In this document: one piece after another, positions 1 to 43,208 of the stretch
How positions within the stretch are numbered: the stretch's first letter is position 1
Layout of the letters: each line of letters opens with the position of its first letter
NCBI GenBank assembly: GCA_044892525.1
Contig: CM097888.1
Span: 32,302,001 to 32,366,000 of the forward strand
Origin: Schmidtea polychroa
Lineage: Eukaryota
Reading direction: 5' to 3'
Length of the DNA stretch: 64,000 nucleotides
Notes under the pieces: generated by a model
The model's database searches: none
What the model was told of the DNA's origin: nothing
Seen by the model: the letters and a program-made list of their open reading frames with translations, nothing else
Made by a program: the position numbers and the translations under genes

Positions 1-1
1 A

Positions 2-2806
2 ACCGCATTACTTGATACAGGATCCAAAATAACCACACAAGACCACGATCGGAAAAACGCACTACATCATGCTATCGAAGGGAAACGTACCGAAGCGTTC
101 ACGTCGCTGATGGAACTACTATCATATGAGGACAATCGAGAAGTCGGAAACATGTATGGTGGATTACTAACAGCGACCAAAGAAAAACTGACAACAATTA
201 CCGGAATATTAATTACATGGAGAAATCCAATTAAAAATGATTATATGATCAACGTAAACGAAGCGTTCACGAGAGGAGAGAACACGCTGATGAGAGAAGC
301 TATGAAAGGACATCATTTATTCGAAATCCCGAATCAATTACTGGAACGAGGAATAACCTTCACAAATCATAAGGATGAGCAGTTATTAAAAAAGCGAATT
401 GACACATTCGAAAAATCAATATTCCAATTCATTACTCAGGTACGAAATAAATATTGGGGAACGGTAAGTGTGTTATACATGATGGACACGATGAACAACA
501 TCCGCGAGAATTACCTAGATATTATTCAAATACTTACCGCAGAGGAACGAATCAATAATCCAACTGGAAAGAAGATAAAAATAAAACATGGGATACCAAC
601 AGAACCAAAGTCGCAAACAAACCAAACGGTCACAAATAACGTCACCGAAACCAAATCAATGAGTATAGATCAAAGAGCAATAATATGCAAAGCGAAAGAA
701 GTGTTCTTTGAGGAAATGCTAAAGTTGTCCGACGAAATAATATTGTCCAAAATAATAAAAGCCGTACACACATACGCAAGAGATCAAACCACGGGTTTAG
801 ATATCGGGAAAATCAAAACCTTTTTACCTAGAGCATTTACGATGGTAAAAAAGGATTCCAGAACACCTCTGCAACAAGCAATACTAGCAGCGAAAGAAAA
901 TAGAGCAATAACGATCATGAGAATCCTCAGAGATATGGGCGAAGAAACCAACACGAAAAATGAACAAGGCGAAACCGCCATGATGTATGCAGCTATAACG
1001 AAAATACACCCAAAAACACTCCACATCCTACATCAATCAGGATCGAGACTAGACGAAAAATCAAACGAAGGGAACTCCACATTGGACTGGGCAACCATAC
1101 AGCCAAACTTGGAAATTATCAGATTTATTTGCAAAAATGCGACAAAAGAGGAAGTTGAAAATATGTGCAAAAACACATCTCAATTTCAATGGAATACGGT
1201 ACGGAAAAATCTAGAAGCAATGAAACTATTATTGACATGGAGAGTACCACAAAGTAATAAATATGCGATAAATATAAACGAATTTTACGAAAACGGAGAA
1301 AACGCGATGGTAAAGAATACCCTAACTAAAGGGGGGACGCCTAAAATTATCTTAATAGTATTAAATCGAGAGGACCTCAAATTCACGCAAAATCAAAACG
1401 AGCAACAACGAATTGGAAAACATCGTCGTATTCAATTGAGAGAATTAGTCAAGGAATGGAATAGAAAGAGACATGCCGCAACGGGTAGAAAAGAATTTGA
1501 ATTCGAAGCAAAGTTAGCAAGGAACAGAGTGTTAACAGCATATCGCAAATTATTGAACGATATAAATGTCGAGGACGACATTTTAAACGACAGCGGGGGA
1601 GATAAACACGATGACAATGACGGAAAAGGCCGAAAAGAGGATAAAGGGAAAAGAGAACCGGAAGAGGATAAACCGGAAAACAAGGATTTGGATACGAAAA
1701 GAGAGGGAAACAGCCCGGGAACCAAGACCAAAGAGGAGGAAAAACCGAATAATGGAAAACAGAGGGTATGCCTACCTTTCACTAACAAAGAAATAGAGAC
1801 AAATATGATATTAATGATAATTATGCTTACCATGATAGAGTTAGTAACAGCTCATGGAGGGACGAGAACGATAAAAGAAACCAAAGAAGCGGAGAATCAA
1901 GATAGCAAAGAGGATGAACAAAAACAAGAAAAGAAAAAGCAAGCACAAGAGCAGCAGTGGGATTTAAAGGAAGAATGGGACCTAAAGGAAAGGTGCATAC
2001 TAGGAAGATGTATGTCTAGAGCGTATCAGAAATTAGTACTGATAAATGAGGACACAGAACCAATAACAGAGGTAAGAATACAAGAAGCATACAGAAATCG
2101 AGACGGGAAGAGAATAACGAACGTTAAAGGAAAAGAGGTGCACCTGGGAAAAGGAGGTGAAGTAGTAATAACGCAGCTCCAACCAAGAAAAGAGCACAAA
2201 GTCTGTATTTCAAGATTAGGACCAGGTGAGAGATGCCATCAATATGTGACGCAGCAGCAGCCGCCGAAAGAATACACGGTTTGTATCTGGAGGAACGAAT
2301 CAAAAAGAGAATGCCGACGATACCCGGGGAAAAGAGGAAAGAAAAGAAAAAACCACGACGAAAAGGACGAAGGAGGAAAGCACAAGAAAACCGGCGAGGA
2401 AGCTCAGGACAACTATGTTTCGGAGGAGGAGATGGAAAAAATACAAAAGATGGCAAAGGAGGGTATGAACGAGGAAATAGCAAGAATACGAGAGATGATG
2501 AAAGGGAATGACAAAAGAGGGAACGAGAAAAGTACAGAAGCAATATCAACATTAACAAACAAGGAAAAACCAGAGAGTATAAGCGTGAAGCAGATGATGT
2601 GGATCAGTGGGATAATAATAACAGGGGCATTCCTAATCATAACGGGGGGAACAATAAAAATAATTAAAGATAAACGACATCGCGGAGAACTAGAGATGAC
2701 CCGAATCAGAAATTTCCAACATCGAGTGAAACGACCAAGTGATATCAAACAAGAACAGTGGGTGGAGGCCTGGAACGCTCAGCGCCCTCCAAACTCACGT
2801 ATATAG
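2..2806 (+). CDS. Ankyrin-repeat protein with two hydrophobic segments (5'-partial, >934 aa)
   Basis: Frame is open from base 2 (TALLDTGSKITTQDHDRKNALHHAIEGKRTEAFTSLM, itself ankyrin-like), so the true start lies upstream of the window. Ankyrin repeats: DSRTPLQQAILAA, NEQGETAMMYAA, SNEGNSTLDWA. Hydrophobic segments NMILMIIMLTMIELVTAHGG and WISGIIITGAFLIITGG (followed by KIIKDKRHR). Confidence 0.8.
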   Translation, partial: TALLDTGSKITTQDHDRKNALHHAIEGKRTEAFTSLMELLSYEDNREVGNMYGGLLTATKEKLTTITGILITWRNPIKNDYMINVNEAFTRGENTLMREAMKGHHLFEIPNQLLERGITFTNHKDEQLLKKRIDTFEKSIFQFITQVRNKYWGTVSVLYMMDTMNNIRENYLDIIQILTAEERINNPTGKKIKIKHGIPTEPKSQTNQTVTNNVTETKSMSIDQRAIICKAKEVFFEEMLKLSDEIILSKIIKAVHTYARDQTTGLDIGKIKTFLPRAFTMVKKDSRTPLQQAILAAKENRAITIMRILRDMGEETNTKNEQGETAMMYAAITKIHPKTLHILHQSGSRLDEKSNEGNSTLDWATIQPNLEIIRFICKNATKEEVENMCKNTSQFQWNTVRKNLEAMKLLLTWRVPQSNKYAININEFYENGENAMVKNTLTKGGTPKIILIVLNREDLKFTQNQNEQQRIGKHRRIQLRELVKEWNRKRHAATGRKEFEFEAKLARNRVLTAYRKLLNDINVEDDILNDSGGDKHDDNDGKGRKEDKGKREPEEDKPENKDLDTKREGNSPGTKTKEEEKPNNGKQRVCLPFTNKEIETNMILMIIMLTMIELVTAHGGTRTIKETKEAENQDSKEDEQKQEKKKQAQEQQWDLKEEWDLKERCILGRCMSRAYQKLVLINEDTEPITEVRIQEAYRNRDGKRITNVKGKEVHLGKGGEVVITQLQPRKEHKVCISRLGPGERCHQYVTQQQPPKEYTVCIWRNESKRECRRYPGKRGKKRKNHDEKDEGGKHKKTGEEAQDNYVSEEEMEKIQKMAKEGMNEEIARIREMMKGNDKRGNEKSTEAISTLTNKEKPESISVKQMMWISGIIITGAFLIITGGTIKIIKDKRHRGELEMTRIRNFQHRVKRPSDIKQEQWVEAWNAQRPPNSRI

Positions 2807-2966
2807 AAAGGAATATGACTGTATATAATTGTAAAAAGTAAGTATATCTTATGTATATAACAGTACTATATCTTTATATAAGCGCGGTATCAATATTATA
2901 CAATAACGGGAATCATAAAATAAAATTAACTTTAAATAAGAGTTGAAAAGTGTATATAAATTAAGA

Positions 2967-3326
2967 ATGGATCAAGGAAATAACGAAATGAACCACAATA
3001 CAGTAACTGAAGAATTATGGAAGCAACAATGTGCCGTATTAGCACAATTAGTGTCCAATTTGCAAGAACAGGGATTGACGATGCACAGAAACCTAATCGA
3101 GAGTATGAATAGAGGATTTAGTTATTTGAAGATAATTGAAGACCAGAGGTTAAAAATCGAACAAATGCAAAGAGAGATAGAGAGGATAACCCAATATAGC
3201 CGTAGACAGGAAATTGAACTAGACAGAATGATGGAGGAAGCAGAACAGACAGAAATAGAAGACTGGTCAGAATGGCTAATGAATAGAGAGGAGAGCGGAC
3301 ACGAAGCCGACTCTTCCGAACCCTAA
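2967..3326 (+). CDS. Small coiled-coil protein with acidic C-terminus
   Basis: The ORF track starts at TTG 2943; the first ATG is at 2967, directly after ttaag. Heptad-like stretch KIIEDQRLKIEQMQREIERITQ. Confidence 0.6.
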   Translation: MDQGNNEMNHNTVTEELWKQQCAVLAQLVSNLQEQGLTMHRNLIESMNRGFSYLKIIEDQRLKIEQMQREIERITQYSRRQEIELDRMMEEAEQTEIEDWSEWLMNREESGHEADSSEP

Positions 3327-3411
3327 ACCAAACCTAGCTTAAAATGTAAATAATTGTAAATAAAATATCGAACCTGTATCGATAAGAACTATAAGTATAT
3401 ATAATTATAGA

Positions 3412-4800
3412 ATGGATAAACGACAAAGAGAAGAGTTCAGAGAGATTGTCGAACAAGTCAGAAAATCTACAACGATCCGAACACACAAACATGTTATGTG
3501 CGGGATATGTGAAAAGTTGTTAAAGGAACCTCACCAAACCCAATGTGGATGCAGAGTATGTAAAGAATGTATCAGTGAAGCAATAAAGAATAGACCACAG
3601 TGGTGCCTGGTGTGTAAAGAGACACTAATATCGAGTTTAGAAGACACTAACGAGGATAAAGCCGCAGTGAAAGACATGTTAAACACCAATCTGGGATGTA
3701 AAAATACCCCATGCGAATGGAAAGGAATAATATGGAAAGTAGTGCAACATATGGGAGAATGTATGTACAGAATCGGCCAGTGTGAAAGGTGCCATAAAAC
3801 CATTCAAGCAAGCGAAGAAAAAGAGCATCAAAGACAGTGTGAAGAGAGATTAGAAAGATGTGAACATTGTGGAGAAATAGATACGTGGAGAAATCTCACC
3901 ATCAAACATCACAATGTCCAAGAGGAGAGAGTATGTGCAGAGTTCAGTGGGGAATGCCCAAACGGATGTAACCAAGGGGAAATAATAAAGGTGGCACAGC
4001 ATCTAAGGGAATGTGAAAAGAAAAGAATGACATGTGTACTAGGTAAATGGGGTTGTCAGAAACTACTACACCGAGGGGAGTTACCACATCATTTAGTAGA
4101 AAATGCTTCAACCCACGCAGAAATGTGGTCGACTGCGTTACAAGAAAGCGAAGAGAAAGTAAAACAAATGGAGATAGAGATAACATCGTTGAAAGTGTTA
4201 GTCAAAGAACTACTAGAAGAAAGGGAAGCGTTCGAAGAAGCCCGAGCAAACATAAAGATGCAAATAAACCGAATAGAAATCAGTAATAATCAGGCCAAGG
4301 AGCTACATCAGAAAATACGGGAAATAAATCTAAATGAGATAACCCCAACAGCACCCTACATATGGAAAATAACGGGAGTAAAAGAAAGAATACGAAAAGC
4401 AAAAACCGGAGAAGAGACAAGAATAACAAGTCCTGCATTCCATTCTTGGAAAAATGGGTACAAAATGAAAATGAAGATATATCCCAACGGGGACGGAACC
4501 GGATTAGATACACACTTTTCGATTTTCTTTCTGTTATGTAAAGGGGAATACGACGAAATAATAGAGTGGCCGTTCCAGGCAAAAATCGATATTGCACTAA
4601 TGAATGACCGAAGCATCCACGAACAAAGCTTCAAGACAACTGGAAACCAAATGTGTTACCAGAGACCTACGGAAGAAGAAGGATCAGCAACAGGAGCACC
4701 TACGTTCATCCTACAACAAAAAGTAGAAGATATGGCAAGAAATGACACGGTGTATATCAAGATGACCGTGAGGAAAGAGGAGAAGGGTAGAACGGAGTAA
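3412..4800 (+). CDS. TRAF: TNF receptor-associated factor (TRAF2/3/5-like): RING, TRAF zinc fingers, coiled coil, MATH domain
   Basis: RING CGICEKLLKEPHQTQCGCRVCKEC...WCLVC; serial TRAF-type Cys/His fingers; coiled coil; MATH motifs YIWKI, SPAFHSWKNGYKMKMKIYPNGDGTGLDTHFSIFF, WPFQAKI. Single uninterrupted ORF. Confidence 0.95.
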   Translation: MDKRQREEFREIVEQVRKSTTIRTHKHVMCGICEKLLKEPHQTQCGCRVCKECISEAIKNRPQWCLVCKETLISSLEDTNEDKAAVKDMLNTNLGCKNTPCEWKGIIWKVVQHMGECMYRIGQCERCHKTIQASEEKEHQRQCEERLERCEHCGEIDTWRNLTIKHHNVQEERVCAEFSGECPNGCNQGEIIKVAQHLRECEKKRMTCVLGKWGCQKLLHRGELPHHLVENASTHAEMWSTALQESEEKVKQMEIEITSLKVLVKELLEEREAFEEARANIKMQINRIEISNNQAKELHQKIREINLNEITPTAPYIWKITGVKERIRKAKTGEETRITSPAFHSWKNGYKMKMKIYPNGDGTGLDTHFSIFFLLCKGEYDEIIEWPFQAKIDIALMNDRSIHEQSFKTTGNQMCYQRPTEEEGSATGAPTFILQQKVEDMARNDTVYIKMTVRKEEKGRTE

Positions 4801-4993
4801 CCAATCGAATAATGTTGTATATAATAATCTGTATATATCGGTGTATATAACCAATAAAATATTATATAATAATAGTATGAAAACCCTAAATACGAAAACC
4901 CAAAAATGATGCGAAAATTTCCAAAGAAACAGTAAATAATGAATAAATTCCTTTTTCATAATAAAAAGATTAATCGATGTCTATGATTTAGAG

Positions 4994-6049
4994 ATGACAC
5001 AAGAGAAACTAACCGAAACTGCGATAGCCCCAACCAATGTCAACAAGACACAAATTCCCCGAGAACATAACAAAAAATGGAACAAAGTAATGTTCCAACT
5101 AACTAATCTCACCCGAAATCACATCGAAGAAGCTAGAGAGGATGAGAATAGTCAATACCAATGGTTAATACACAACTTAAGAGCGGAAGCAGAAGCATGC
5201 AAAAGAGCATCAAAATGGGCGTCACTAGAAAATACCCGCCAAGAAGCGCACAGCCACTACTTAAAGCAGCTAGTGCAGGAAGCGAGAAAGAGACTTACCG
5301 ATGAGAACACCAAGCGCGAAGCGGAAAAGCAAATAGAAGGAAGGAAAATGATGCACTTAGTGGCAGAAGCGAGAAAATGGAAAAGACAAAACAGTGAAAT
5401 GAAAAAAGAGATGAAAGAATTGCCCATGAGACTCGGATATGAAAGCGAACAAGGTAAATGGGAGGAGAATTTAATAATAAAGGAAGAATTGAAACGGTTG
5501 AGAAAGGTCGCCGCCCGAAGTCAAACCTGGCAAACAAAGGCTATGGAGTTTGAGCGACATTTGGCAATAAAATGCGACATAAGAGAGCACGAGAATGCCG
5601 CAATGGAAGAGATGATAACCCAACAAGCAGGACGGGTTGTGGAATTAGTAAATCAGGTAGAAGAGATGAAAAGAGACCTTAATGGATTACAAGGATCGCT
5701 GGAACAAAGAAACATGGTCCTAGCTGGAAAAAACAGAAAATTAGAAAACGAAAGGAAAATGTACACCGAAAATATCAAAAACTTGGAAATAGAAATTGAA
5801 AAATGGAAGGGCGACGAGAAAATCAAGGCCCTAGATAGACAAATAGAGATGAAAGACGAAGAGACAAGGTACCTCACCTACCTGCTCGACGAGGAGCTGA
5901 ACATCACTCGAGCTCTAAGAGACGAAATTAATGAGTTGAGAGCCCAAATTCCCCAATATTACCTACCATACGACCCTATTGCGATACAGTTACATCCCGC
6001 GGTCGATAGTGATGAAGGTTATGTAGGCCAGGAGGAAACCTTCGTATAA
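4994..6049 (+). CDS. Coiled-coil protein, 351 aa, unknown function
   Basis: Long ORF with the same codon bias as its neighbours, E/K/R/L-rich heptads, tail PQYYLPYDP...DSDEGY. Confidence 0.7.
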   Translation: MTQEKLTETAIAPTNVNKTQIPREHNKKWNKVMFQLTNLTRNHIEEAREDENSQYQWLIHNLRAEAEACKRASKWASLENTRQEAHSHYLKQLVQEARKRLTDENTKREAEKQIEGRKMMHLVAEARKWKRQNSEMKKEMKELPMRLGYESEQGKWEENLIIKEELKRLRKVAARSQTWQTKAMEFERHLAIKCDIREHENAAMEEMITQQAGRVVELVNQVEEMKRDLNGLQGSLEQRNMVLAGKNRKLENERKMYTENIKNLEIEIEKWKGDEKIKALDRQIEMKDEETRYLTYLLDEELNITRALRDEINELRAQIPQYYLPYDPIAIQLHPAVDSDEGYVGQEETFV

Positions 6050-6217
6050 GGGTGGATAAAAAGATAAAAAACAAAAAACCGGGACGTATATCCCAAACAA
6101 AAAAATTAAAGTATTGTAAAAGTATCCAAGGGACTGTAACCCAAACTATTAAATTTTATATAAATGTATACGTATAAGTCGCACTATAGCGCACCATTAA
6201 CTGTACATATTATAGAT

Positions 6218-6919
6218 ATGAAAATCGAGGAAATAATAGAAATTATGAGCGACGTAGAAGAAGGAGAGATCGAAGCAGAAACAACAGAAACACAAACGCT
6301 AAAGACAGAGTTACGGGAAGAGAAGTATGAAAACGGGAGATTAATAAACAAATACCTGGAAGACCGTAAAATGATAAAGGTGTTAAAGAAAGAGTGTGAA
6401 GCGTTGGGGAAAATAAAAAGAGAAACGGAAGAGGAAAACGAATGGCTTCAGGAACAAAGGAAGCGAGGAAAAAACTGGGAAAAGATAGCGGGAGAATTAT
6501 GGAAAGAAAGAGCAAGCCTTAAAGCAGAAGAAGTAATTGAGGATTATTGGAAAGGTGAGGCGAAGGAACGCCAAACAGCAATAAATAAATTAAAACAACA
6601 ACTGGAAGAAAACCAACGGGAAAGTAAAGAAATGAGGAAGTGGATCCACAAATATAGAGAGATAGAAAGAGAACATCAACAACAAAATTACCGGCAAGAA
6701 AACGAACAAGACTTCCTACAAATTGAACTAAAAAGAAACCTTGAAAAGAAAAAGGAAGAAATTAGACGCTTGAAAAAAGAAATCAGACATCTAAGGAGAG
6801 AAAACCGTGAAAAAGACCGACAGTTAGCAATGCTACCTGAGTTGAGATATAGGGTCATTAAGGCAGAGACCACCCTAATGAGAATCACCGAAAACGATCC
6901 CCAAAAGAAAGACGATTAA
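6218..6919 (+). CDS. Coiled-coil protein, unknown function
   Basis: The ORF track gives 6164; ATG 6218 after tattatag is preferred by analogy with neighbouring starts. Charged heptad-rich sequence. Confidence 0.65.
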   Translation: MKIEEIIEIMSDVEEGEIEAETTETQTLKTELREEKYENGRLINKYLEDRKMIKVLKKECEALGKIKRETEEENEWLQEQRKRGKNWEKIAGELWKERASLKAEEVIEDYWKGEAKERQTAINKLKQQLEENQRESKEMRKWIHKYREIEREHQQQNYRQENEQDFLQIELKRNLEKKKEEIRRLKKEIRHLRRENREKDRQLAMLPELRYRVIKAETTLMRITENDPQKKDD

Positions 6920-6955
6920 CAAAAGAACGTCGACAATTGTAAATAAATTAAATGT

Positions 6956-7600
6956 TTGATGTATAACAGTATAATGCGGTGGGGAGTGACAATCACCTTG
7001 ATAATACTGGCTAACAATCTGATGAGCAAGCCACAGAGTAACCCCCAAATAAATAGCCTCCGAGATCACCGAAGAAAGAACTCGAAAACCCAATCCGAAT
7101 CACCTAAACCGAGATGCCATACCATGGTAAAGAGCAAAATCATAGACAACATCCGTTCAACCCGAACCTACATCGACAATATCCGAGTAATGTGCCAAGG
7201 AAACCTCCTGTGTAGAAAAATAAATAAGGTGATGATAGAACAAATCCATCACCTAGATCAACTAGAAGTGCAAATACGACAGGAAAATTCCGAACCTGAA
7301 AAAATCGAAAAATCCCCAGAACAAGGCGACACCCACTACCTTCTATATGTGGTGATCGCCGAAACAAGCCTATTATGTCTAATAACCTTCTTAGAAATCC
7401 TCGAATTCAAGAAAAAATGCCAACAACCGAAATCCAAAGCTACCCAGAAAAATTCGGTCGAACTTTCCAACATCACTCAAAATACAAGTCCACTCAGATT
7501 AACCCACCAAGAATCTCCCAAACCATCAACCAGTCGTCCGGCCTACTACAACATCGAGCCTAAAATGTACCAACAACCCCAGTCAGAGTCAGCAGAGTAA
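6956..7600 (+). CDS. Putative type I membrane protein (signal peptide, Cys-containing ectodomain, TM, Tyr-containing tail)
   Basis: N-terminal MRWGVTITLIILANNLMS (ATG 6974); TM YLLYVVIAETSLLCLITFLEIL followed by KKKC; tail PAYYNIEPKMYQQP. Confidence 0.6.
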   Translation: MMYNSIMRWGVTITLIILANNLMSKPQSNPQINSLRDHRRKNSKTQSESPKPRCHTMVKSKIIDNIRSTRTYIDNIRVMCQGNLLCRKINKVMIEQIHHLDQLEVQIRQENSEPEKIEKSPEQGDTHYLLYVVIAETSLLCLITFLEILEFKKKCQQPKSKATQKNSVELSNITQNTSPLRLTHQESPKPSTSRPAYYNIEPKMYQQPQSESAE

Positions 7601-8172
7601 TAAAACAATGCCAGTACTGATTTAAAACATTATCTAGTGTGAACTGTAAAACATTATCTGGTGTGAACTTCTGTGTATATAACCTATCACCATAAGTGAT
7701 ACCTGCTTGGTCCTATTTTGACCTTTATCCTACTAATAAATTTATTATATATGATGTTGTGGTTATTTTATTTTTCTTTTTATGAATGAATGAAGTAAGT
7801 ATGTAATTGCGGGACGCAATTTTGATGGGTCCCCGAGTGATTTGTTGGGCTGAATTGGAAAAAATGATCGTCGAAAAATAAGATAGATAAGAGGCGAATA
7901 AAATAAAATAAGACCACCAATTTTAGGAATAAATAAATCAAGACATAAAATAAACCATAAATAAGATATAAAAATTAAAACAAAAAAAAATAAAAATTAA
8001 AAAATTAAAAAATAAAGTAATAACATAATGAATAAGATACCGGAAAACGCAATAAATAATAAGGAATTTAGGAAATAAATAAAAGATATAATAAAAATAG
8101 GAAAATAAGTAAAATACCCAAAGAAATAGGAAAAAACAAATTAATTTAATAAAATAAGCGGTACTCAATTTT

Positions 8173-8235
8173 GATTGGTCCGCGTAAATGAAAAATTGGT
8201 ATATAAACCAACGCCAAAATCATAAAAATCAGTGT
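8173..8235 (+). promoter_or_regulatory. Pol II promoter in LTR-like region (inverted CCAAT, TATA, Inr-like TCAGT)
   Basis: GATTGG 8173-8178, TATATAAA 8200-8207, TCAGT about 8229, downstream of an A-rich tract from about 7860 to 8160. Confidence 0.55.
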
Positions 8236-8311
8236 TAATTTGAAAAAACATTACAGGTAAAGAAATTTTAGCATAAGTATCAACAGTGTTAATTTGAAAA
8301 AACATTACAGG
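8230..8311 (+). repeat. 28-bp direct repeat x2
   Basis: CAGTGTTAATTTGAAAAAACATTACAGG at 8230-8257 and 8284-8311. Confidence 0.9.
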
Positions 8312-8694
8312 ACTGACTCTAGGACCAGAAAACCTTCAATAAATTCAGAGAAACTACTCGAGAACCTCATAAAACCGACTACCAGCTTCGACACCAGTTG
8401 ACTATTTTGGAAAAGACGAGCCTTATATTTCGATTCAGCCTAACGTGATAGTAAGAGATTGTATTCATTTGTTATTCTTAATTTTTGAAGTAACAGTAAC
8501 TATGTATATTTATTAAATAATTAAAATTTTAAGTTACATTTGATCTTTTCTTTTCACTTGATCCCGATTGATAAATTTGATAAATTAACTGGTTTAAAAA
8601 TCTAAAGTCATTAATTCGATATGATTTGGCAATTCTTATGATTATTTTTATGAAGTATATTTTTATGCTGTTCAAAGTAACGAGTAACGTGGAG

Positions 8695-8813
8695 TTGAGA
8701 TACTCCATGTCATGGTATGAGGTGCCTTCGGGAGCTCAGCCGGTGGACATGGAGTATTTCAATCACGCAGCTAGATTGGGCCGAAATGTGAAGGCTTCTT
8801 CACGGGTCCAATC
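8695..8813 (+). other. Two adjacent strong stem-loops (candidate structured RNA leader)
   Basis: 17-bp stem 8695-8711/8746-8762 enclosing a C(UUCG)G loop; 9-bp stem 8774-8782/8805-8813 enclosing a GTGAAG/CTTCAC hairpin. Confidence 0.55.
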
Positions 8814-10110
8814 GCTGAAGGTGCGACTAAATTCTATGAAAAGATTGCTCTAGGAAAACCGTAGTTAGACAGTGATTGAAAAGACAGATGTATAAATGGA
8901 TGCATTTTTGACAATTCGCACGGTGATTGAGGAGGTCACGCTATTAGCTCATCGGTTCGTTTTCTTGAACTTTATCACATCTTAGTTATCGGAAAATAGT
9001 CATATAATTATTCAGTAAATTCGTCTAAAAATTGGTGTCATTTCATAACCTACATCACCTGAATGCATAATTTTACGAAAATTAGATCCTGTGACTTTCA
9101 GCTGCCAGAACTCCATAAATGTAGTCTATCGTATTTTTTCGCACATAATTAATAAATCGGTCGAGAGTACATATGGTAGCGAATCCCAAAAATTAATTAA
9201 TTCCAAAAATATTTACCGAACTACGAAATATCTCTAAATTCAATTCAACAAAATTTATTTTATACAAAGAAAAAACTAGTTCCATGCCATACCTTCCCCA
9301 GAGATCGAACAGGCAATGTCTAAGGCATAGTTGCGAAACTCACGAATCCAATGAGTAAAATCCAAATTTTCAGTGTAGTACCGAGAGGGGTCGAATGTAG
9401 TTTTCTTCATTACCTTCTTATTGATCGTCGGGAATTCCACTAAAAGTCCAATTTTTGAGTTTAACTTCATATTGAGAAACATCAGCAGTAGCAAGAGGAA
9501 ATCTACATAATCCACCGCACAATGAGTATCGGATAACATATGAGTAGCGGGATGTTGATGGAATTAGCAGCAAGTGCGATAGAAATCCAAAATTCATTTC
9601 AAGTAATAAACAACCACACGCAAATTCACATTGATACGGCAGACATACGAGAGTTCACATAACGCATGCACACCACACACTGACATGGAGAACATTCGCA
9701 TGAGAGACATGAGTCAATTCACAGGTAAATATCATCAGCAACAAACTCGGCCATATGTCATACTGATAGTAATTTTTCCTCTCTGCGAGATAATGACGGT
9801 GAAACATGTTAGATAGCAACTGGCCTGAGACTATTGTATTCAAGCTATCACTTCTCACATACTACTGGATAAAGATTTGGTCTAGACCAATTATGGAACA
9901 ATCACCAGATAATTATAACCCTGATTACGATCACAAATCGCACTCTTAAATTAGTTACAAATTATTTATGTTTTGGAAAATTAGAATGATTTAAATTAGG
10001 CTTACAGATAATACTAACAATTTCGTTCAGTAGCCCATTTAAATAATCGTAAGAATCTTCAACAAAGTACGATAACCAATGTATCAAAGTTTTCATTAAA
10101 CATCATTATA

Positions 10111-10112
<2 letters not shown>

Positions 10113-10157
<45 letters not shown>
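10113..10157. repeat. (ATT)n microsatellite
   Basis: Near-perfect trinucleotide tract. Confidence 0.95.
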
Positions 10158-10158
<1 letters not shown>

Positions 10159-10573
10159 TAATATTTTACTAAATATCATCGATCCTCAAACCACCACCTA
10201 TAATATCCTACGAGTGGGTGAAGGGGGCAAGAGCGTTGGGAAGGTCGTTAGCGTCGAGGTCGCGTAATTTTTGATCCTAAATGGAATTCCGGATTGGTAG
10301 GAGAAATTTTATGATCGGTAAAGGTATCCCTGAACCTGTATTAATCGAATTGCATTCGTCAAGTCAGTATAGTTCGGTTAGGTAAAGAATGTTATCCGTT
10401 AAACTCGTATTATTTAATGGAATTAAGTAATTTTGTACACAATTTAAATCGACGAGTAAGGACATTCATTGTTGTTTAGTGGCTGAATATCCACGGGCAG
10501 TCGATTATTCGTATTCCACGTATTTCTTCAACCATGTATATATTACGTCTTAACCTCATGCTTTATAGCGAGC

Positions 10574-11341
10574 ATGATACCAACTACCAAACCTGCGTTA
10601 CGTCCATGCTTCTCTTGTGCGGATAAAAACGCCATCATCAAAGATCTGCAAACCCAGATTGGACGGTACAAAAGGAAGATAGATGAGCTAGAAGGGACAT
10701 GGTTTAGTCCCGCTCGGATGAAAGAGATCCAAAAGAAGCTCGATCGTAGCGAACATTGCCGGGACGCGCTAATATCTGAGAGCCGTGCCCAAAGAAGTCT
10801 CATCAAAGAACAGTCAGAGGCACTGCACAAAGTCTACGTGCAGGCGACTACAACCCGGAAAATAGTGCAGATTCCTATGAGAGAGGCCGATAACATCTTT
10901 CCGCCTCATCACAACCCTTCCTCGAATCCATCTCCGCCGTTCAAGAGACCGTGTCGAGACTGCGTGGAAACCGAACTTTCACCTGGGCGACCGGACGTTG
11001 TCCTCACGAGTACTAGCAAGACTTCAGCTGCTAACATCTCTATACCCACTGCGCTTCAAACCACCACAACTACGAGCAAACCCAAGCGCAAACAATTATC
11101 GCGTGCGGAACGAAAGCGGAGGCAGCGTGAGCGTGCGTCCACCAAGCCAAGCCTCCTATCAATAGAAGACTCTACTGGCGGTGGTAGTTCTCGAATGTCC
11201 ATCGACTTGACAATAGGGGCCCCAGCGCGCATCATCTCGGCGGCTGGCGTGACATGGGAGGAAAATGCCTCCGAATTCTTTGATCTGGACGAGTTGCTCG
11301 CCGACACCGAATGGGAACATGAGATTCATGAAGTCCGTTAG
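10574..11341 (+). CDS. 255-aa protein: RPCxxC motif x2, coiled coil, basic NLS-like patch, acidic C-terminus
   Basis: GC-richer ORF preceded by tttatag; RPCFSC and RPCRDC; KPKRKQLSRAERKRRQRER; EFFDLDELLADTEWE. Confidence 0.65.
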   Translation: MIPTTKPALRPCFSCADKNAIIKDLQTQIGRYKRKIDELEGTWFSPARMKEIQKKLDRSEHCRDALISESRAQRSLIKEQSEALHKVYVQATTTRKIVQIPMREADNIFPPHHNPSSNPSPPFKRPCRDCVETELSPGRPDVVLTSTSKTSAANISIPTALQTTTTTSKPKRKQLSRAERKRRQRERASTKPSLLSIEDSTGGGSSRMSIDLTIGAPARIISAAGVTWEENASEFFDLDELLADTEWEHEIHEVR

Positions 11342-11574
11342 GAAGTCGTATCGCATTTATTGTGACATTTCTTTTTCTCCACGAATACTCGTGATGTGTA
11401 CGATTAACTCCTTGTGTATTAATATTGAATACTAATAAATTTCGTCGTTTACTTACTTCCGTTTATAAACTGTCAGATTTTAATTAAATAAGTTGAATAT
11501 AGCGTCTTCGAGAGTTAACGAATAATCCCCGATTTATCCTCGTGAAATTCTGGCAACCGGTGATGTAATGCAAT

Positions 11575-11843
11575 GGACGTAAGCCCTTCTATCGGCAGTC
11601 AGGAATGGAAAGTCGAGGCCTCAGCAAGGAGTAGTTTTAAGGCAGAAGCTCACCTGCTTGCTGGCGTCTCGCCTGCATAGTGCAGTACCAACGTGAAGTA
11701 ATTCACGGGCACTATGCTGGAGGAAAGTTATGTGGGGTTTCACTCCGGGTTGACAAAGCGGCGGCACATTTTATTCGAGATGGACAATCAACCCTTAGAC
11801 CAGACAATATGGTAGAGTAGTCAGCCGAGGTGTAACCCCAACA
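11575..11843 (+). ncRNA. Structured RNA motif, copy A (GGAC...CCTTCTA block, AGTACCAA-bulged stem, terminal stem, ends CCCCAACA)
   Basis: GCATAGTGC 11675-83 pairs with GCACTATGC 11709-17; bulge AGTACCAA; hairpin CGTGAA-GTAA-TTCACG. Blocks shared with copies at 34.8, 43.6 and 52.5 kb. Confidence 0.6.
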
Positions 11844-12071
11844 CTAATAATAATAATATTAATAATAAATAATAATAAAAAATATAATTACCGCCATAAA
11901 CCGAAATTTTATAAAAAATATATAAAATGAGATATATGGCCACCAATGTTTTATATAGTATTTATTTTAACAACAAAAATCAAAAAAATCAGAGAATTAT
12001 TTCTTTATTTTAAATAACAAATCACTTTTAAGATCATCGAATCTCTAATTAACGATTTACAGTCATTTATT

Positions 12072-19562: not shown

Positions 19563-20245
19563 TTATTGGCATGTTAAATACCTCAATATAAAAATAATAA
19601 TAATAAATACTTCATTTATCCAACTGGATTGTGTTTCCATCTGAATTCTGAAATCTTTTAATTCATTTTTCATTAGATCATTTTGCCTTTCTAAGTCGAG
19701 TATTTTATTCATTTTAATTTCATCTCTATTTCTCAAGTGACGAAATGCTGATTTTAATAAACATAATTCATATTTAAATGGATCACCCTGATTTTCTGAA
19801 ATATCTGGATTAACTGATATCTTCCTTTGTATTTTAAATAATAAGTCATGTCTATTTCTGACAAAATGGGGATGACTCCATTCAGAATCATCACAACTAC
19901 CTTTATTAGAATTAGTTCCTAATTCAATACGATTGATTTTATGAAATCCATCTAAAAAATATTTTGCATTATCTATAATTAATATATCCAATTACACATA
20001 TTCAACTGCCGAATGAAACTAAGCATGTTTTGATGTTTGAAAAGTAAAGGAAAATATTCTCTAGCCAATTGATGACCATCAGTAATAGAAAAACCTTTCC
20101 CGTCCTTAATTTGTGGAAATAAAAGTTTTCATTAGACAAATGTGTATACTTGATTCCAGTAAATAAGTTTGTCTGTTTTAGGTGAATCTACAAGCTTCCT
20201 TAGTTTCAATAAAAATTCGGGTATTTTTTGAGAATTATTATTCAT
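19563..20245 (-). CDS. HSF: Heat shock transcription factor (HSF DNA-binding domain plus HR-A-like coiled coil); spliced, 3' end uncertain
   Basis: Exons 20245-20150 (MNNNSQKIPEFLLKLRKLVDSPKTDKLIYWNQ), 20104-19996 (DGKGF...FKHQNMLSFIRQLNMY) and 19951 onward (GFHKI...EWSHPHFVRNRHDLLFKIQRK). GT-AG introns 20149-20105 (45 nt) and 19995-19952 (44 nt). Confidence 0.9.
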
Positions 20246-27950: not shown

Positions 27951-30900
27951 ATGAGAAAATTAATTTTTATTTTTCTTATTTTCCATGTTCATATTTTTAC
28001 TTGCACAAAAATACCCAAGCTCTTACGATGCACTGATGAAACATGTGAAGATAGAATTTCAACTGGCAGAATTATTAAATCTGCAAATTCTAAATACGGA
28101 AATCTGGATGTTTTGAAGAGTTCATCTATGGTATATGTAAGAGGTAAAAACGTTGATTCACAAAATACCCTTTGGTTAGTAGAGCAAGAAGGATATTATG
28201 GATTCGTAGATCTTTCGTTCATAAAAGAAATAAAAAATACTGTAATTGAAGAATTGATGATTGTTCAAAATCCTTATGATACTAAAGTTGATGAAACTGA
28301 AGACAGTGATGATTCCACAAATAATGTGGGTTTGTTCTCAAACGAAAATGCCAAAAACACTGATTTACTCATGGAGAATGATGAAACAGAAAACTTCAGT
28401 GAGATGAATTCTACAATAAAATCTAATAAAGAAAATTCAGACAATATAAAAAATGCTGAAGTTATGAATAAGCTTCTAAATAATAATATAACTACTTTGA
28501 ATTCACAAAATAATGATAAATTAGAAACCAATAAGGCAAATATTAATGATAAAATTAATAAAGAAAACGCCAAAATAATTGAAAGTTCGAATTCAAACAA
28601 TGGTATTGTCAATTCAGTTAATATCCATAAAGAAGAAATATTAAATTCTAAAAAGGTTCAAGATCCCGCGAAGAAAGACAGCATTTCTCAAGATATAAAA
28701 TCAGAAGTCAACCATGTCAAAACTGTTGACGTTAATGATGGACAGAAGTCAGTTAAGAAAATTGATTCTAAAGAGAAATTGGAACCACCGAAAGTAGTAA
28801 AAGATGTTAAAGTTAATAATGCAAAAGAACAACCAATAGTTATAAATGATGATAAAGATGACAAATCAGGTGAGAAAAGGAATTTACCCAACATTAATCA
28901 ACAAAATAGTGATAAGCATACAAAAATTCCGGATAAAATCGTCGACAATAGCCTTCAGAATTCAGAAAACGATTCAAAATCCAAAATAAATACCAAGCTT
29001 TCTCAAAATCTTCCTGTGGGTAGTAAGGTGGAAATTGGATCGTTAGAGATCTCTCAGATCACAATTAAAAATGAAAAACAAGTTCCCGAAACCCAAAAAG
29101 TCGCAGAACAAGGTGAAAGTAAAAAAACTAAAATAATCGATTCTTCCAAAGTCAATCCAGAAAAGAAGGTAACTCGAAACTCGAAACCGATTGAAAATAT
29201 TGATATGAAACTAGAAAAGACTGAAAATGTTGAATCGCCTAATAGTTTAAAATTTGAAAAGCTACCAGGATCTCCACCAAATAATGCTGCAAGTGAAAAT
29301 CCGATAAAACAAATTCCATCGAAAATCAATTTATCAACAGAGAAGCCAAATATACAAGTAAAGTCGATCGAAAACAGTGAAAACTCGGATAATACCAAAA
29401 CTATCGATTTTCCCAATAGCTTAGAATCTGAAAAGCTGTTGAATAAAGTTGTCAATGAAAATCCCGATAAACAAATTACACCAAAAATTGATCCGATAGT
29501 GGAAAATTCAATTCCAAAAATTCAATTAAAATCCACCGATAACAGTAGCAACAAGCACTCCAATACATTAGAAAATTCTGGCGAATCAACTACTGAAAGC
29601 AAAATTTTACAAACAGCCAATGAAGAATTAATGAAGAAGAGAGACATGAAAAACATTCCAACAGAGCCTATTAAAACTTTAGAAAATAACTCAGAATATC
29701 CAGTTCATTCCAAATCAGATCAAAAATCATCAGAATCAGTAATTGATAATCTATATAGTAAAAATCAAAATATTCAATCGAATGAAAACAAAATTGATCA
29801 ATCACAGAAAATGACAGTTGAAATCAATAATTCCAAATCAGATCAAAAATTATCAGAATCAACAAATGAGAATCTGTCCAATAAAAATCAGAATATTCAA
29901 TCGAATGAAATCAATGAAAACAAAATTGACCAATCGCAGAAAAAGTCGGTTGAAATCGATAATTCCAAATCAGACCAAAAATCATCAGAATCCACAATTG
30001 AGAATCTGTCCAATAAAAATCAGAATATTCAATCGAATGAAATCAATGAAAACAAAATTGACCAATCGCAGAAAAAGTCGGTTGAAATCGATAATTCCAA
30101 ATCAGACCAAAAATCATCAGAATCCACAATTGAGAATCTGTCCAATAAAAATCAGAATATTCAATCGAATGAAATCAATGAAAACAAAATTGACCAATCG
30201 CAGAAAAAGTCGGTTGAAATCGATAATTCCAAATCAGACCAAAAATCATCAGAATCCACAATTGAGAATCTGTCCAATAAAAATCAGAATATTCAATCGA
30301 ATGAAATCAATGAAAACAAAATTGACCAATCGCAGAAAAAGTCGGTTGAAATCGATAATTCCAAATCAGACCAAAAATCATCAGAATCCACAATTGAGAA
30401 TCTGTCCAATAAAAATCAGAACATTCAATCGAAGGAAATCAATGAAAACAAAATTGATCAATCGCAGAAAAAGACAGTTGAAATCAATAATTCCAAATCA
30501 GATCAAAAATCATCAGAATCAACAAATGAGAATCTGTCCAATAAAAATCAGAACATTCAATCGAAGGAAATCAATGAAAACAAAATTGACCAATCGCAGA
30601 AAAAGTCGGCTGAAATCGATAATTCCAAATCAGTTCAAAAATCATCAGAATCAACAATTGAAAATCTGTCCAATAAAAATCAGAACATTCAATCAATAGA
30701 AATCAATGAAAGAAAAACTGATCAATCAGGAGAAAAATCACACGAAATCAATAATCAATCCCAATCGGATAATAATTTACCAACAAAAACTTTGGTCAAT
30801 GAAAAAGGAACCAATTCAAAATTGAAATTCGAGAATAATAATAATAATAAAAAGCAAATAAAACAAAGTTTATACAGTGAAAAATCGGTTAAATTAACGC

Positions 30901-38714: not shown

Positions 38715-39406
38715 TATATTCGTGCTAGAGTAGACGCTGGCGCACGCGCTACTCCTTTGGCATTTCCCGACTCTGAATTCCTGGTACACTCCTTTGCAAT
38801 GTGGCCCTCTTCTGCACATAGCCAACACTTCTTTCCTTGTTTCTTGAAACAACGTTCTTCTAGATGGCCATTCTTTCCGCAATACGAGCATTTCTTTTTC
38901 TTGTCTTGTTTTCCAACGACAGCCGAACACAGTTCCATATTGTCACAGTTTACTAAGACACGAGACTGTTTCAAGACCTCAACAAGAGACATCTGCTGAA
39001 TATTGGCATTTGATCGTAACTGTTGTGATGACACTGCTGGCAAACCCATTATGAATGCGCTTTTAATTATGATTTCGTTATCTATCTTGGCCAGAGATGC
39101 TAAGTTTTTGAGATCATTCAAATAGACATCTACTGGCTCATTGCACCACCTTCGTTCACGGAATCGGTCATAAGCTTGGAACATATCGATCGAATAGACA
39201 TCGATTAAGGCATGTTCGATCTTCAATGCGTTGCCTTTGTCTTCTGTGCTCAAATGCTGATACACTGCAAAAGCTGGTCCATCTAGATATAAAGGAATTA
39301 TTGATTCCAACTCCACGATTCTTTGAATTTTTGCCACTAGCTTGACTTTCTGAATCCACTGTTGAACGTCACCTTCTCCATTGAAAATAGGTATCATCTT
39401 GTCCAT
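38714..39406 (-). CDS. gag: Gag with two CCHC zinc knuckles
   Basis: IPIFNGEGDVQQWI; CSYCGKNGHLEERC and CWLCAEEGHIAKEC. Confidence 0.93.
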   Translation of the reverse strand: MDKMIPIFNGEGDVQQWIQKVKLVAKIQRIVELESIIPLYLDGPAFAVYQHLSTEDKGNALKIEHALIDVYSIDMFQAYDRFRERRWCNEPVDVYLNDLKNLASLAKIDNEIIIKSAFIMGLPAVSSQQLRSNANIQQMSLVEVLKQSRVLVNCDNMELCSAVVGKQDKKKKCSYCGKNGHLEERCFKKQGKKCWLCAEEGHIAKECTRNSESGNAKGVARAPASTLARI

Positions 39407-41888: not shown

Positions 41889-43208
41889 ATGAATAAATCA
41901 AATATTAACACTATTAAGATCAACAGCTCTAATAGCAAAGTTAAACTTATTCCGCAGAACAAATATATTCAGCATCATGAAAAATCGTTTAAAATTAATT
42001 TTATAAAACCAACAGACAACCAATATGATGTTTTACTTTTTCTGAACGATTTTACATCCAATTTCGACTTTAGGGAAAAACCTATATTTATGAAACAATT
42101 TGTGAATAGAAAGGCAATTCGAAATAACAACGAACCAGAATTTGGAGGAGGGAGTACTTTCAGGAAAGAAAGGAAACAAACTAAAACTGAATCTGTCGAA
42201 ATACCAAATTACACTTTGACAATTGACAAGGCCAGTTCTCAAAAGCAACTTAGAACAGCTTCACAAGAAAACAGTTCAAATAAAGGATATTTCTTTTTTG
42301 TTAGAGTAAGCGAATCACAATTTGAGGCACATCCAATTGAAAATTGGTACCGAATCCTCCCGTTCAAAAAGTTAGATGTCAATGTCATTGAGGAAGCAGA
42401 ACGAAATATTTTAGAAAGGAATAAAAAATCCGAACAATATACGAAAATAATTGCAAAAAAATTTGAAACTGAAACAGTTGTAAATGAAATGGCTTTTGGC
42501 GATGAAGTTGAACAATTATCTGATTCAGAAATGCAAGAGGCAAAAATATTAAATAAAAGGAAAAAGGAAAATGTTTTTCAACGCGCAAGACATGGCAAAG
42601 GTAATGCTCATGCTGATGATAGTGACGTTGATGATCATCATGGAGATGAAGTTGATTATATGAGTGATTCTTCGTGTGATGAAGACATTTTATCAGACGA
42701 AGATAAAGAGAAATTATATGAAGCAGTTGAAGTTGATCAAGAACCAACATTAGGAAATAATATTCAAGACAATTCATCTGATGAGTCAGATAATAAAGAA
42801 GAAAAGATAGAAGTTGAGAAGATAGAAGATGAGGAACAAAGTGTTGAAGATGATAGTTCTAATGATTCATCATCTGATGAAGACGATAAACCTCCAATGC
42901 CAACAAAGACTTATTCAGCTCACCAGTCTGCTAATGTCACAATGAAAAGATCACATAATAATAGCTTTTCTATGGAAATTAAAAGACAAAAATTATCCCA
43001 AGAAGAGTGTCAAGAAGACCGGGTCATTAGAGAATTAAAATCGATGCTAACAAATAAAACTGTCAAGGTTACCCATGTATTCAAATCTTTATTGCAGAAA
43101 AACATTTTAGAAAATAATAATAAATGTAAAGCATTACTTTTTAAATGTTTATCTGAACTAAATGCAAAATGTGAAATTATCGATGGTAAAAAGTTTTACA
43201 GTTTGTAA
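41889..43208 (+). CDS. GTF2F1: General transcription factor IIF subunit alpha (RAP74)
   Basis: FGGGSTFRKERK; YFFFVRVSESQFEAHPIENWY; GDEVDYMSDSS; acidic linker; C-terminal winged-helix-like domain. Confidence 0.88.
   Translation: MNKSNINTIKINSSNSKVKLIPQNKYIQHHEKSFKINFIKPTDNQYDVLLFLNDFTSNFDFREKPIFMKQFVNRKAIRNNNEPEFGGGSTFRKERKQTKTESVEIPNYTLTIDKASSQKQLRTASQENSSNKGYFFFVRVSESQFEAHPIENWYRILPFKKLDVNVIEEAERNILERNKKSEQYTKIIAKKFETETVVNEMAFGDEVEQLSDSEMQEAKILNKRKKENVFQRARHGKGNAHADDSDVDDHHGDEVDYMSDSSCDEDILSDEDKEKLYEAVEVDQEPTLGNNIQDNSSDESDNKEEKIEVEKIEDEEQSVEDDSSNDSSSDEDDKPPMPTKTYSAHQSANVTMKRSHNNSFSMEIKRQKLSQEECQEDRVIRELKSMLTNKTVKVTHVFKSLLQKNILENNNKCKALLFKCLSELNAKCEIIDGKKFYSL

Follow-up and report, generated by a model that had tools for sequence, protein, structure and literature searches.

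The window analyzed here is a 64,000-nucleotide stretch of Schmidtea polychroa DNA. Its first 11,843 nucleotides are the 3' half of a young, multicopy Burro-type Gypsy LTR retrotransposon, an identification of which we are almost certain. We are also fairly confident of the whole explanation, in which this half carries accessory genes under selection, including a TRAF with a likely effect on host signaling. As described in PMC6431247 (after Jurka 2007 and Grohme 2018), Burro1/GYPSM1 of Schmidtea mediterranea is a giant LTR retrotransposon of the Gypsy type, and the Burro design set out there already includes TRAF/MATH and ankyrin cargo. The kind of element and its cargo are thus no new system; the layout of the cargo is still poorly described.

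Identity and ends of the element

The initial annotation of the window had taken this region for the accessory end of a giant retroelement or endogenous virus, and the DNA upstream bears out the retroelement, with gag, env, pol, and a 5' LTR that matches the 3' LTR. The two LTRs differ at 5 of 4,001 nt (99.875% identity), and the insertion is recent. The LTR-like region expected downstream of the ORFs is a true 3' LTR, although it starts at 7843 and not at 7755. The 4-bp target-site duplication can be read in five of eight other copies as well. The element measures 33.5 kb with a nested hAT and ≈30.0 kb without it, other copies being ≈29 to 30.5 kb long. Its 19-nt primer site, 7 nt past the 5' LTR, is complementary to the 3' terminus of a genomic tRNA-Pro(TGG). 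No clear purine run precedes the 3' LTR; a conserved GC-rich motif stands in its place, with 557 exact matches genome-wide versus 0 for the reversed control. The hairpin predicted at this motif is weak (z −0.6), no more stable than shuffles in the three stretches compared.

Upstream of the window, profile matches (RVP, RVT_1, RNaseH, rve) give the order PR-RT-RNaseH-IN, preceded by a gag (Retrotrans_gag, E 4e-12) with three CCHC knuckles and, in frame between gag and pol, an env that matches a Monjiviricetes fusion glycoprotein (E 3e-71). Ubiquitin-like repeats (RA_2, weak at E 0.057) and a Bcl-2-like segment (weak at E 0.011) complete the polyprotein order gag-(ubiquitin-like, Bcl-2-like)-env-pol, and the element also encodes a 5' protein with an IAP-type RING. 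Between PR and RT, Pfam gives no dUTPase-like match at E ≤ 0.1, and no scanned ORF of the window copy contains a BIR. The polyprotein is one unbroken frame of 4,732 codons in three of eight other copies; in the window copy, it is broken by two frameshifts, one stop, and the nested hAT. MATH matches once per copy, downstream of pol and never inside the polyprotein, in the window copy and in all eight others, each of which also has a homolog (60–85% identical) of the ORF inside the 3' LTR.

Farther along the window, an HSF gene with short introns had been noted, and we likewise find an HSF domain match at 19988–20215 whose internal stops are consistent with introns.

Table 1. Features of the element in the window (window positions unless stated otherwise)
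Feature	Position	Strand	Basis or remark
5' LTR	contig positions 32280321-32284321 (G000:C4), upstream of window		matches 3' LTR
Pol C-terminal tail (ORF1)	2..2806	+	in frame with upstream PR-RT-RH-IN; Ank_2 E 5e-11
Predicted Ig/FN3-like beta-sandwich ectodomain in Pol tail	1964..2329	+	AlphaFold, all-beta
Six spacers, 902 nt total	within 2807..7842	+	11 TGTA[ACT]ATA motifs, AATAAA/ATTAAA hexamers, AG before ATGs
ORF2, 119 aa, likely coiled coil, no known family	2967..3326	+	sister-family homolog 31%, same place
ORF3, full-length 462-aa TRAF	3412..4800	+	RING, zinc fingers, coiled coil, MATH (Pfam)
ORF4, 351 aa, likely coiled coil	4994..6049	+	sister-family homolog 33%
ORF5, ≈233 aa, likely coiled coil	6218..6919	+	sister-family homolog 26%
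ORF6, predicted type I membrane protein	6974..7600	+	hydropathy, copy comparison
Conserved GC-rich motif	7810..7839	+	just before 3' LTR, expected polypurine-tract position; common to both families
3' LTR	7843..11843	+	4,001 nt, TGTTGGG...CCCAACA; TATA-like box near 8200
LTR-internal ORF, 255 aa	10574..11341	+	TGTAHATA motif 39 nt upstream
Target-site duplication CTAA (4 bp)	11844..11847	+	AT-rich flank

A conserved cassette in two Burro families

At least 150 copies are present in the genome (among 1,492 candidates, the best 150 have MATH-domain matches of 85–100%), which settles the question of multicopy status raised at the outset. Of 40 loci sampled, 36 have all six ORFs in identical order, and the TRAF is directly followed by ORF4 in all 40; because loci were picked by TRAF matches, the intactness of the TRAF itself (41/41) is biased. 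ORFs 1–5 are under purifying selection, with dN/dS of 0.05–0.25 among pairwise values that are not independent. The six same-strand intronless ORFs first proposed are all real frames. ORF1, however, is not a gene of its own: it comprises the last 934 residues of a 2,259-codon frame (PR-RT-RNaseH-IN-ANK) whose start lies 3,973 nt upstream of the window, which leaves five accessory genes in the cassette besides the Pol tail. The short spacers (160, 85, 193, 114–168, and 39–54 nt) and the A-rich strand (AT skew 0.36–0.47 versus ≈0 in the flank) were described correctly.

The same genome harbors a BIR-bearing, Burro1-like sister family, with MATH within a 4,791-codon frame and a BIR 13 kb downstream. 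Its cassette, ORF2-TRAF-IAP-ORF4-ORF5-membrane ORF, shares the order of the window family and places the TRAF beside a BIR-RING IAP. The two families are 88% identical in RT, 81% in IN, and 58% in env, whereas their cassette proteins are only 26–39% identical, with strong divergence in the ectodomain of the Pol tail and in the final membrane ORF.

By description, this sister family fits Burro1. The window family resembles Burro1 in its length of ≈30 kb, three-CCHC gag, ubiquitin-like and Bcl-2-like segments, env in frame between gag and pol, PR-RT-RH-IN order, ankyrins, and TRAF/MATH, but it lacks both a MATH in the polyprotein and a BIR-RING IAP after the TRAF. Burro-2, -3, and -4 are reported to contain MATH, ankyrin, and BCL2-like motifs (PMC6431247), and the window family, compared by description, is probably one of these; one supplement of PMC8532177 does not mention Burro2–4. 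A Burro-like element of Dugesia tigrina, as outlined in PMC6431247, similarly has MATH in a separate accessory ORF outside the polyprotein. That ORF is described as upstream, whereas the window family carries a full RING-ZnF-MATH TRAF downstream of pol.

The start of ORF5 is likely its second ATG (6218), kept in 36 of 36 open copies; the upstream ATG at 6164 is not present in all copies. Likewise, ORF6 likely starts at the second ATG (6974; the frame opens at 6959), kept in 32 of 32 open copies. A homolog search with ORF4 returned none at E ≤ 0.001. ORF6 is predicted to comprise a signal-like N terminus, a helical-hairpin ectodomain, a TM helix, and a low-complexity tail; its structure model has low confidence (pLDDT 45) and gives only a generic helical hairpin, and ESM Atlas offers only leads under 0.9. 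Its alleles are deeply diverged (identity down to 34%) and are swapped between copies together with the LTR type. We attribute this divergence to long-standing alleles exchanged along with the LTR block and not to positive selection, which we rejected in aggregate at dN/dS below 1 in every region (0.19–0.80).

A predicted membrane-anchored end of Pol

Beyond its ankyrin repeats, the Pol tail continues with a basic segment, an acidic linker, a hydrophobic stretch, a beta-sandwich, a TM helix, and a tail. Hydropathy places a signal-peptide-like stretch at residues 602–620 and the TM helix at 862–880, followed by a 46-residue cytoplasmic tail with a QEQW segment that is conserved in an alignment from which one misaligned row was removed. 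The AlphaFold model of the ectodomain (mean pLDDT 69.5) matches VIA best, at a middling Z of 7.3, under 8 (rmsd 2.5, 74 aligned), and FN3 and cytokine-receptor domains at Z 6–6.8; Foldseek against PDB and BFVD found no match at E ≤ 0.001, and ESM Atlas none that was usable. The tail as a whole (dN/dS 0.11–0.18) and its ectodomain (0.10) are constrained. Pol is predicted to end in a membrane-anchored Ig/FN3-like protein, which signal peptidase would free as a type I membrane protein.

The element TRAF and its origin

Pfam identifies both RING and MATH in ORF3 (MATH E 4e-26), and ORF3 matches TRAF1/2/3 in the PDB at E ≈1e-27, with dN/dS of 0.10–0.16. In what we take to be the receptor pocket, the Y, D, and G positions are kept and R is replaced by K, and the residues aligned to the S-A-S serines of TRAF1 read Q-M-C; the pocket is therefore partly diverged. 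Human TRAF1/2/3 and triclad short TRAFs (Dendrocoelum TRAF-2/-4, UniRef T1DF65/T1DBK6; intronless non-element loci L083–L093) have the same RING-ZnF-coiled coil-MATH arrangement at 29–40% identity. The element TRAF differs from them in the all-cysteine zinc ligands of its RING, its diverged pocket, and its place in a separate long-branch clade on a mobile element. A homolog search returned a single TRAF at E ≤ 1e-10.

The TRAFs of both families cluster together (SH-aLRT 94) in a tree that comes from a quick search, with the key node unstarred and compositional bias flagged. Of 23 non-element MATH domains sampled, none falls inside the element clade; judged by this tree, the sampled host TRAFs are not descended from the element TRAF. 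The element TRAF would have been captured once, from a lineage of triclad short TRAFs and ahead of the split between the two families. The genome owes at least 423 of its MATH loci to Burro copies. The suggested route to TRAF family expansion stands for raw copy counts but, by the sampled domains, fails for the origin of host genes.

What the cargo may do

Our preferred reading, slightly better than even on sequence grounds, is that the element TRAF acts on host signaling. It likely does so in cell-death or stress signaling, favoring cells that carry the element. By analogy with the B-IAP of Burro1, for which an anti-apoptotic role is reported (via PMC13465017), the TRAF, the 5' RING protein, and the Bcl-2-like segment would likely form an anti-death kit.

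The strongest competitor, to which we give somewhat less than a one-in-three chance, has the cargo serve the particle cycle of the element itself: the coiled-coil and membrane proteins would build or export particles, and the TRAF would contribute a ubiquitin step to budding or to turnover of the polyprotein. The env and ubiquitin-like repeats inside the polyprotein and the two predicted membrane and three likely coiled-coil proteins conserved in both families fit this proposal, whereas the IAP next to the sister-family TRAF, of a type reported as anti-apoptotic, and the element's own Bcl-2-like segment and IAP-type RING speak against it.

The receptor-adaptor-IkB module of the initial annotation, with receptor-mimic membrane proteins that recruit the TRAF and ankyrins as an IkB-like inhibitor, now appears unlikely. 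The Pol tail is receptor-like in layout, with its predicted Ig/FN3-like fold and conserved cytoplasmic QEQW, and the TRAF is adjacent to it in both families. However, canonical TRAF-binding motifs are absent from all 29 Pol tails compared and present in 3 of 32 ORF6 tails; a predicted complex of a TRAF-domain trimer with the Pol cytoplasmic tail (score 0.21) speaks neither for nor against recruitment. The IkB role finds no support: the ankyrins are fused to integrase and give generic ankyrin matches, with no IkB among 59 PDB matches. Clear NF-kB homologs are also reported to be hard to find in S. mediterranea, planarian ones being divergent or unclear (PMC13563047); our RHD search gave 0 matches, as did its control, and carries no evidential weight. 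A host gene cluster or endogenous large DNA virus, suggested by the intronless, tightly packed genes, is refuted by the near-identical LTRs and TSD, the continuity in frame with RT and integrase, and the ≥150 dispersed copies.

Spacer signals

The spacers contain all the copies of TGTA[ACT]ATA (UGUAHAUA in RNA) counted in the cassette, with none in 6,939 nt of coding sequence; shuffles average 0.64, 0 of 2,000 reach 11, and the spacer minus strand has 0. The first motif of each spacer lies a fixed 13–18 nt past the upstream stop, for most stop codons, and its distance to the next ATG is not fixed. Each spacer also has an AATAAA or ATTAAA hexamer, and an AG lies 0–4 nt before each accessory ATG. 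These acceptor-like sites fit the flatworm UUNYAG only partly, ORF2 having AAG/AGG.

We consider it probable, with moderate confidence, that these signals act at the RNA level, and the motif and AG hint at operon-like expression. Each accessory gene would receive a separate mRNA through the AG acceptor just before its ATG, by cis splicing from an LTR leader or by spliced-leader trans-splicing, and the stop-proximal UGUAHAUA would act on the RNA. A strict TATA-Inr-donor pattern is present in the LTR of only 3 of 41 copies, so we claim no shared donor. In contigs from four runs of uncertain kind, no joint falls at a predicted acceptor among the 15 of 44 joints listed, an uninformative result.

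Alternatively, though rather doubtfully, the spacers could act as promoters inside the element, with TGTATATA as a TATA-like or TGTAAATA as a forkhead-like signal, and make each accessory gene its own transcription unit in the style of DNA viruses. The motif resembles the LTR box GTATATAAA at ≈8200 and recurs before the LTR-internal ORF, and the hexamer in every spacer would suit separate units. Against promoters, the first motif is tied to the upstream stop and not to the downstream ATG, some copies lie just 16 nt before an ATG, and the minus strand has none.

Complex retroviruses and foamy-like ERVs have 3' accessory ORFs, and nematodes have SL operons. Like the former, the element has accessory genes in the interval that separates pol/env from the 3' LTR; like the latter, it combines short spacers, poly(A)-like hexamers, and an AG immediately preceding the ATG, read here from sequence. 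A Gypsy-type polymerase, an env that precedes pol, and the stop-anchored UGUAHAUA set it apart. SL operons are also reported in flatworms (PMC12582326).

An extension of the RNA-level reading, which we offer as speculation with perhaps little chance of holding entire, is that the Burro 3' cargo is run as a eukaryotic operon. Pumilio-type UGUAHAUA 13–18 nt past each stop and splice acceptors directly ahead of the ATGs would allow spliced-leader or LTR-leader splicing by the host to divide a single transcript into separate mRNAs for the TRAF, the coiled-coil proteins, and a rapidly swapping surface protein, all subject to post-transcriptional control in stem cells. The hundreds of element TRAF/ankyrin copies would supply the piRNAs that are reported to target planarian traf and ankyrin mRNAs.

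Implications

In the literature covered, we did not find the predicted Ig/FN3-like membrane protein that ends Pol, the exchange of deeply divergent ORF6 alleles among copies, or the stop-proximal UGUAHAUA with an AG before each ATG. If the spacer signals work as proposed, the element would be a retrotransposon with operon-style RNA processing, of which the same literature gave no description. Having a TRAF and no IAP, the window family offers a natural comparison for the action of the TRAF alone. Planarian TRAF expansion has been counted at 121–282 transcripts (PMC6109357, PMC7586133), and TRAF/ankyrin domains are enriched among SMEDWI-3 targets (PMC6824462). Because so many MATH loci are Burro cargo, both the counts and the enrichment need to be re-sorted into host and element genes.

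The cassette is cargo of a Burro-type LTR retrotransposon

The window's six same-strand frames on an A-rich strand, which the initial annotation read as candidate cargo of a giant mobile element, are present, with spacers of 39–193 nt, and sequence 5′ of the window identifies their carrier. In the 40 kb examined there, ORF1 is the continuation of a 2,259-codon pol frame encoding protease, RT, RNase H, and integrase. Farther upstream of pol are a match to a fusion glycoprotein (E 3e-71), a weak Bcl-2 match, and segments resembling ubiquitin. The same region holds three CCHC knuckles, gag, and an IAP-type RING ORF of 180 aa. The two LTRs are identical at 3,996 of 4,001 sites and have the termini TGTTGGG...CCCAACA, the LTR pair is flanked by CTAA, and the 19-nt primer site is complementary to tRNA-Pro(TGG) of a genomic array. 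The gag, envelope-like, and pol genes to be sought upstream are in place within an element of 33.5 kb, nested hAT included; in this copy, two frameshifts, one stop, and the hAT disrupt the polyprotein. Within the cassette, Pfam assigns ankyrin repeats to ORF1 and a RING and a MATH domain to ORF3; ORFs 2, 4, 5, and 6 match no family above cut-off.

The feature is real and, as the initial annotation guessed, it is Burro cargo; its kind was known before. In PMC6431247, Burro is described with MATH_TRAF_C, BIR, ankyrin, and BCL2 motifs and an in-frame env, and the same motifs are noted for Burro-2, -3, and -4. This family has probably been named already, and Jurka 2007, Grohme 2018, Lee et al. 2026, or their supplements may describe the cassette; our literature search, which lay outside those three works, returned no published account of the spacer motif or Pol-tail ectodomain discussed below.

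Other features of the locus and genome are collected in the table. Plus-strand priming may be unusual in both Burro families considered here. Across the genome, the tRNA-Pro(TGG) pattern matches at 2,291 places, and primer sites account for some of these. The HSF gene noted in the window by the initial annotation corresponds to a domain match with internal stops, consistent with introns. Besides the element, some host genes in the window have long intron-free frames.

Coordinates of features in the window and on large contigs of the same genome (C1, C2, and C4; C4 is CM097888.1); L numbers label loci
Feature	Location	Strand	Description
5′ LTR	C4:32280321-32284321		
3′ LTR	window 7843-11843		
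Nested hAT (L003/L004)	C4:about 32291591-32295095		3.5 kb, inside the polyprotein of the window's copy; unbroken 883-aa transposase, short inverted ends, 8-bp duplication
GC-rich motif	window 7810-7839		Precedes the 3′ LTR, at the place expected for a polypurine tract; kept in both families
LTR-internal ORF	window 10574-11341		~250 aa; homolog in 8/8 other copies examined, 60–85% identity; no Pfam family
HSF domain match	window 19988-20215		
Long single frame	window 27951-32579	+	1,542-aa protein, presumably TANGO1-like; signal peptide, repeats, coiled coil
Small unrelated Gypsy element	window 35913-39406	-	gag and pol in separate frames
TFIIF-alpha	window 41889-43208	+	Long single frame
tRNA-Pro(TGG) array (L105)	C1 from 130901009		Long tandem array, 475-bp period; primer tRNA of these elements
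TRAF copies 26.2 kb apart	C4:46257210/46283391		
TRAF copies 26.2 kb apart	C4:69865757/69892041		
TRAF copies 26.2 kb apart	C2:177700240/177726452		
Non-element TRAF cluster (L082, L084, L087, L088, L090-L092, L101)	C2 about 114.7-121.5 Mb		Closely related two-frame TRAFs, one pair inverted

The window's family is young and multicopy

Searches covered a 781-Mb genome with four large contigs. A DNA search gave 360 candidates, of which the 40 scored are 95–100% identical. At the protein level there were 1,492 candidates, and the best 150 showed MATH-domain matches of 85–100%. The motif preceding the 3′ LTR has 557 exact genome matches, two families together; by hand count, the first 100 in the list include 27 of the window family's type, suggesting about 150 copies. 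Forty of the 150 loci were fetched, spread over the identity range with open TRAF frames favored, and 36 carry the six ORFs in order. Among eight copies viewed over 40 kb, five have complete LTR pairs (99.6–100% identical) and three have one unbroken 4,732-codon frame from gag to tail. The family is young. Three pairs of TRAF copies show the spacing expected of tandem elements with a common LTR.

Across 41 copies, the window included, open frames number 29, 38, 33, 36, and 32 for ORFs 1, 2, 4, 5, and 6; the 41 for ORF3 is biased, copies having been selected on TRAF. Pooled pairwise dN/dS, from pairs that are not independent, is 0.05–0.25 for ORFs 1–5 and 0.26–0.49 for ORF6, the predicted membrane protein. 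ORF6 alleles fall to 34% identity, and copies whose TRAF is only 2–9% different from that of the window copy are 41–42% different in ORF6 (16 of 19 compared); the LTRs of copies with divergent ORF6 differ likewise. Positive selection on ORF6 was considered and, in aggregate, not supported: no region has dN/dS above 1, so we attribute the divergence to block swapping of old alleles.

A BIR-bearing sister family shares the cassette

A BIR search returned 150 scored matches, mostly in 392–393-codon frames, and 123 of the 150 best MATH_2 matches lie inside frames of 671–4,846 codons; those paired by coordinate have a BIR about 13 kb downstream. This family fits the published Burro1 description. 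In the two copies examined, the Pol-ankyrin-membrane tail is followed by a homolog of ORF2, a complete TRAF (at least 150 matches), a BIR-RING IAP, homologs of ORF4 and ORF5, and a final membrane ORF. The families are 88% identical in RT, 81% in integrase, 58% in env, and 26–39% in the cassette, and the window family lacks the IAP and polyprotein MATH that the sister family has. Because both share the same cassette, it is older than their split.

Origin of the element TRAFs

Among 177 MATH domains placed in a quick tree, the window family forms its own clade (support 100), with 0 of 23 non-element domains nested inside. A second quick tree, built from 40 full-length proteins, joins the TRAFs of both families to one unnamed protein (SH-aLRT 94), and this group falls within a set containing the triclad short TRAFs. 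These placements make a single ancient TRAF capture likely rather than proven. The MATH domain within the Burro1-like polyprotein does not cluster with the downstream TRAF but with non-element TRAFs that lack introns (support 96; loci of this grouping are L083, L085, L086, L089, L093, and L106-L108), and is likely a second, independent capture.

The suggestion that such elements drive TRAF expansion holds for counts, at least 150 + 150 + 123 MATH loci being element-borne, but not for the seeding of host genes, which the tree and our sample do not bear out. At the 20 fetched of 27 short-frame MATH loci, none has Burro gag, env, or cassette neighbors; LTR-ORF fragments lie near three. The TRAFs at these loci either lack introns or are divided between two frames, and they show 24–40% identity to the element TRAF. 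The C2 TRAF cluster is a host tandem expansion.

The TRAF, the ankyrins, and the Pol tail

The element encodes a complete TRAF whose RING is all-cysteine and whose pocket has diverged in part. The ankyrin region matches generic repeats among 59 hits, not the IkB-like inhibitor once proposed, and canonical TRAF-binding motifs are conserved in neither the Pol tail nor the ORF6 tail, which argues against a receptor–TRAF module. By analogy, we propose that the TRAF may have an anti-death role alongside the IAP, Bcl-2-like segment, and RING, because of this company and the reported function of B-IAP. Between two hydrophobic stretches of the Pol tail lies a conserved region (dN/dS 0.10) for which a beta-sandwich is predicted (pLDDT 69.5; the best structural match has Z 7.3, and FN3 domains have 6–6.8). 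The tail is probably cleaved from Pol as a type I membrane protein.

Spacer signals

The spacers carry TGTA[ACT]ATA, which matches the Pumilio element in sequence, 11 times in 902 nt in the window copy versus 0 in 6,939 coding nt and none on the spacer minus strand; shuffled spacers average 0.64, and 0 of 2,000 shuffles reach 11. Sister family spacers hold six in 662 nt (0 of 2,000 shuffles). In copies with open frames, no internal spacer lacks the motif (27/27, 38/38, 33/33, 31/31, and 29/29), and its first occurrence lies 13–18 nt 3′ of the stop in 4/5 internal spacers of the window copy and 5/6 of one sister copy. The 200 nt 3′ of 19 non-element TRAFs contain one motif in 3,800 nt. An AG lies 0–4 nt 5′ of the ATG in 35/38, 39/41, 32/33, 36/36, and 31/32 copies of the five accessory ORFs in order, the misses in the first three being starts not located by the search pattern. 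Planarian 3′ ends are reported without UGUA in PMC5068929, and PMC12582326 reports SL trans-splicing in S. mediterranea, including a stem-cell-enriched SL.

The residual interest of this family lies in the share of planarian TRAF counts borne by elements, the membrane tail of Pol, and the spacer signals.
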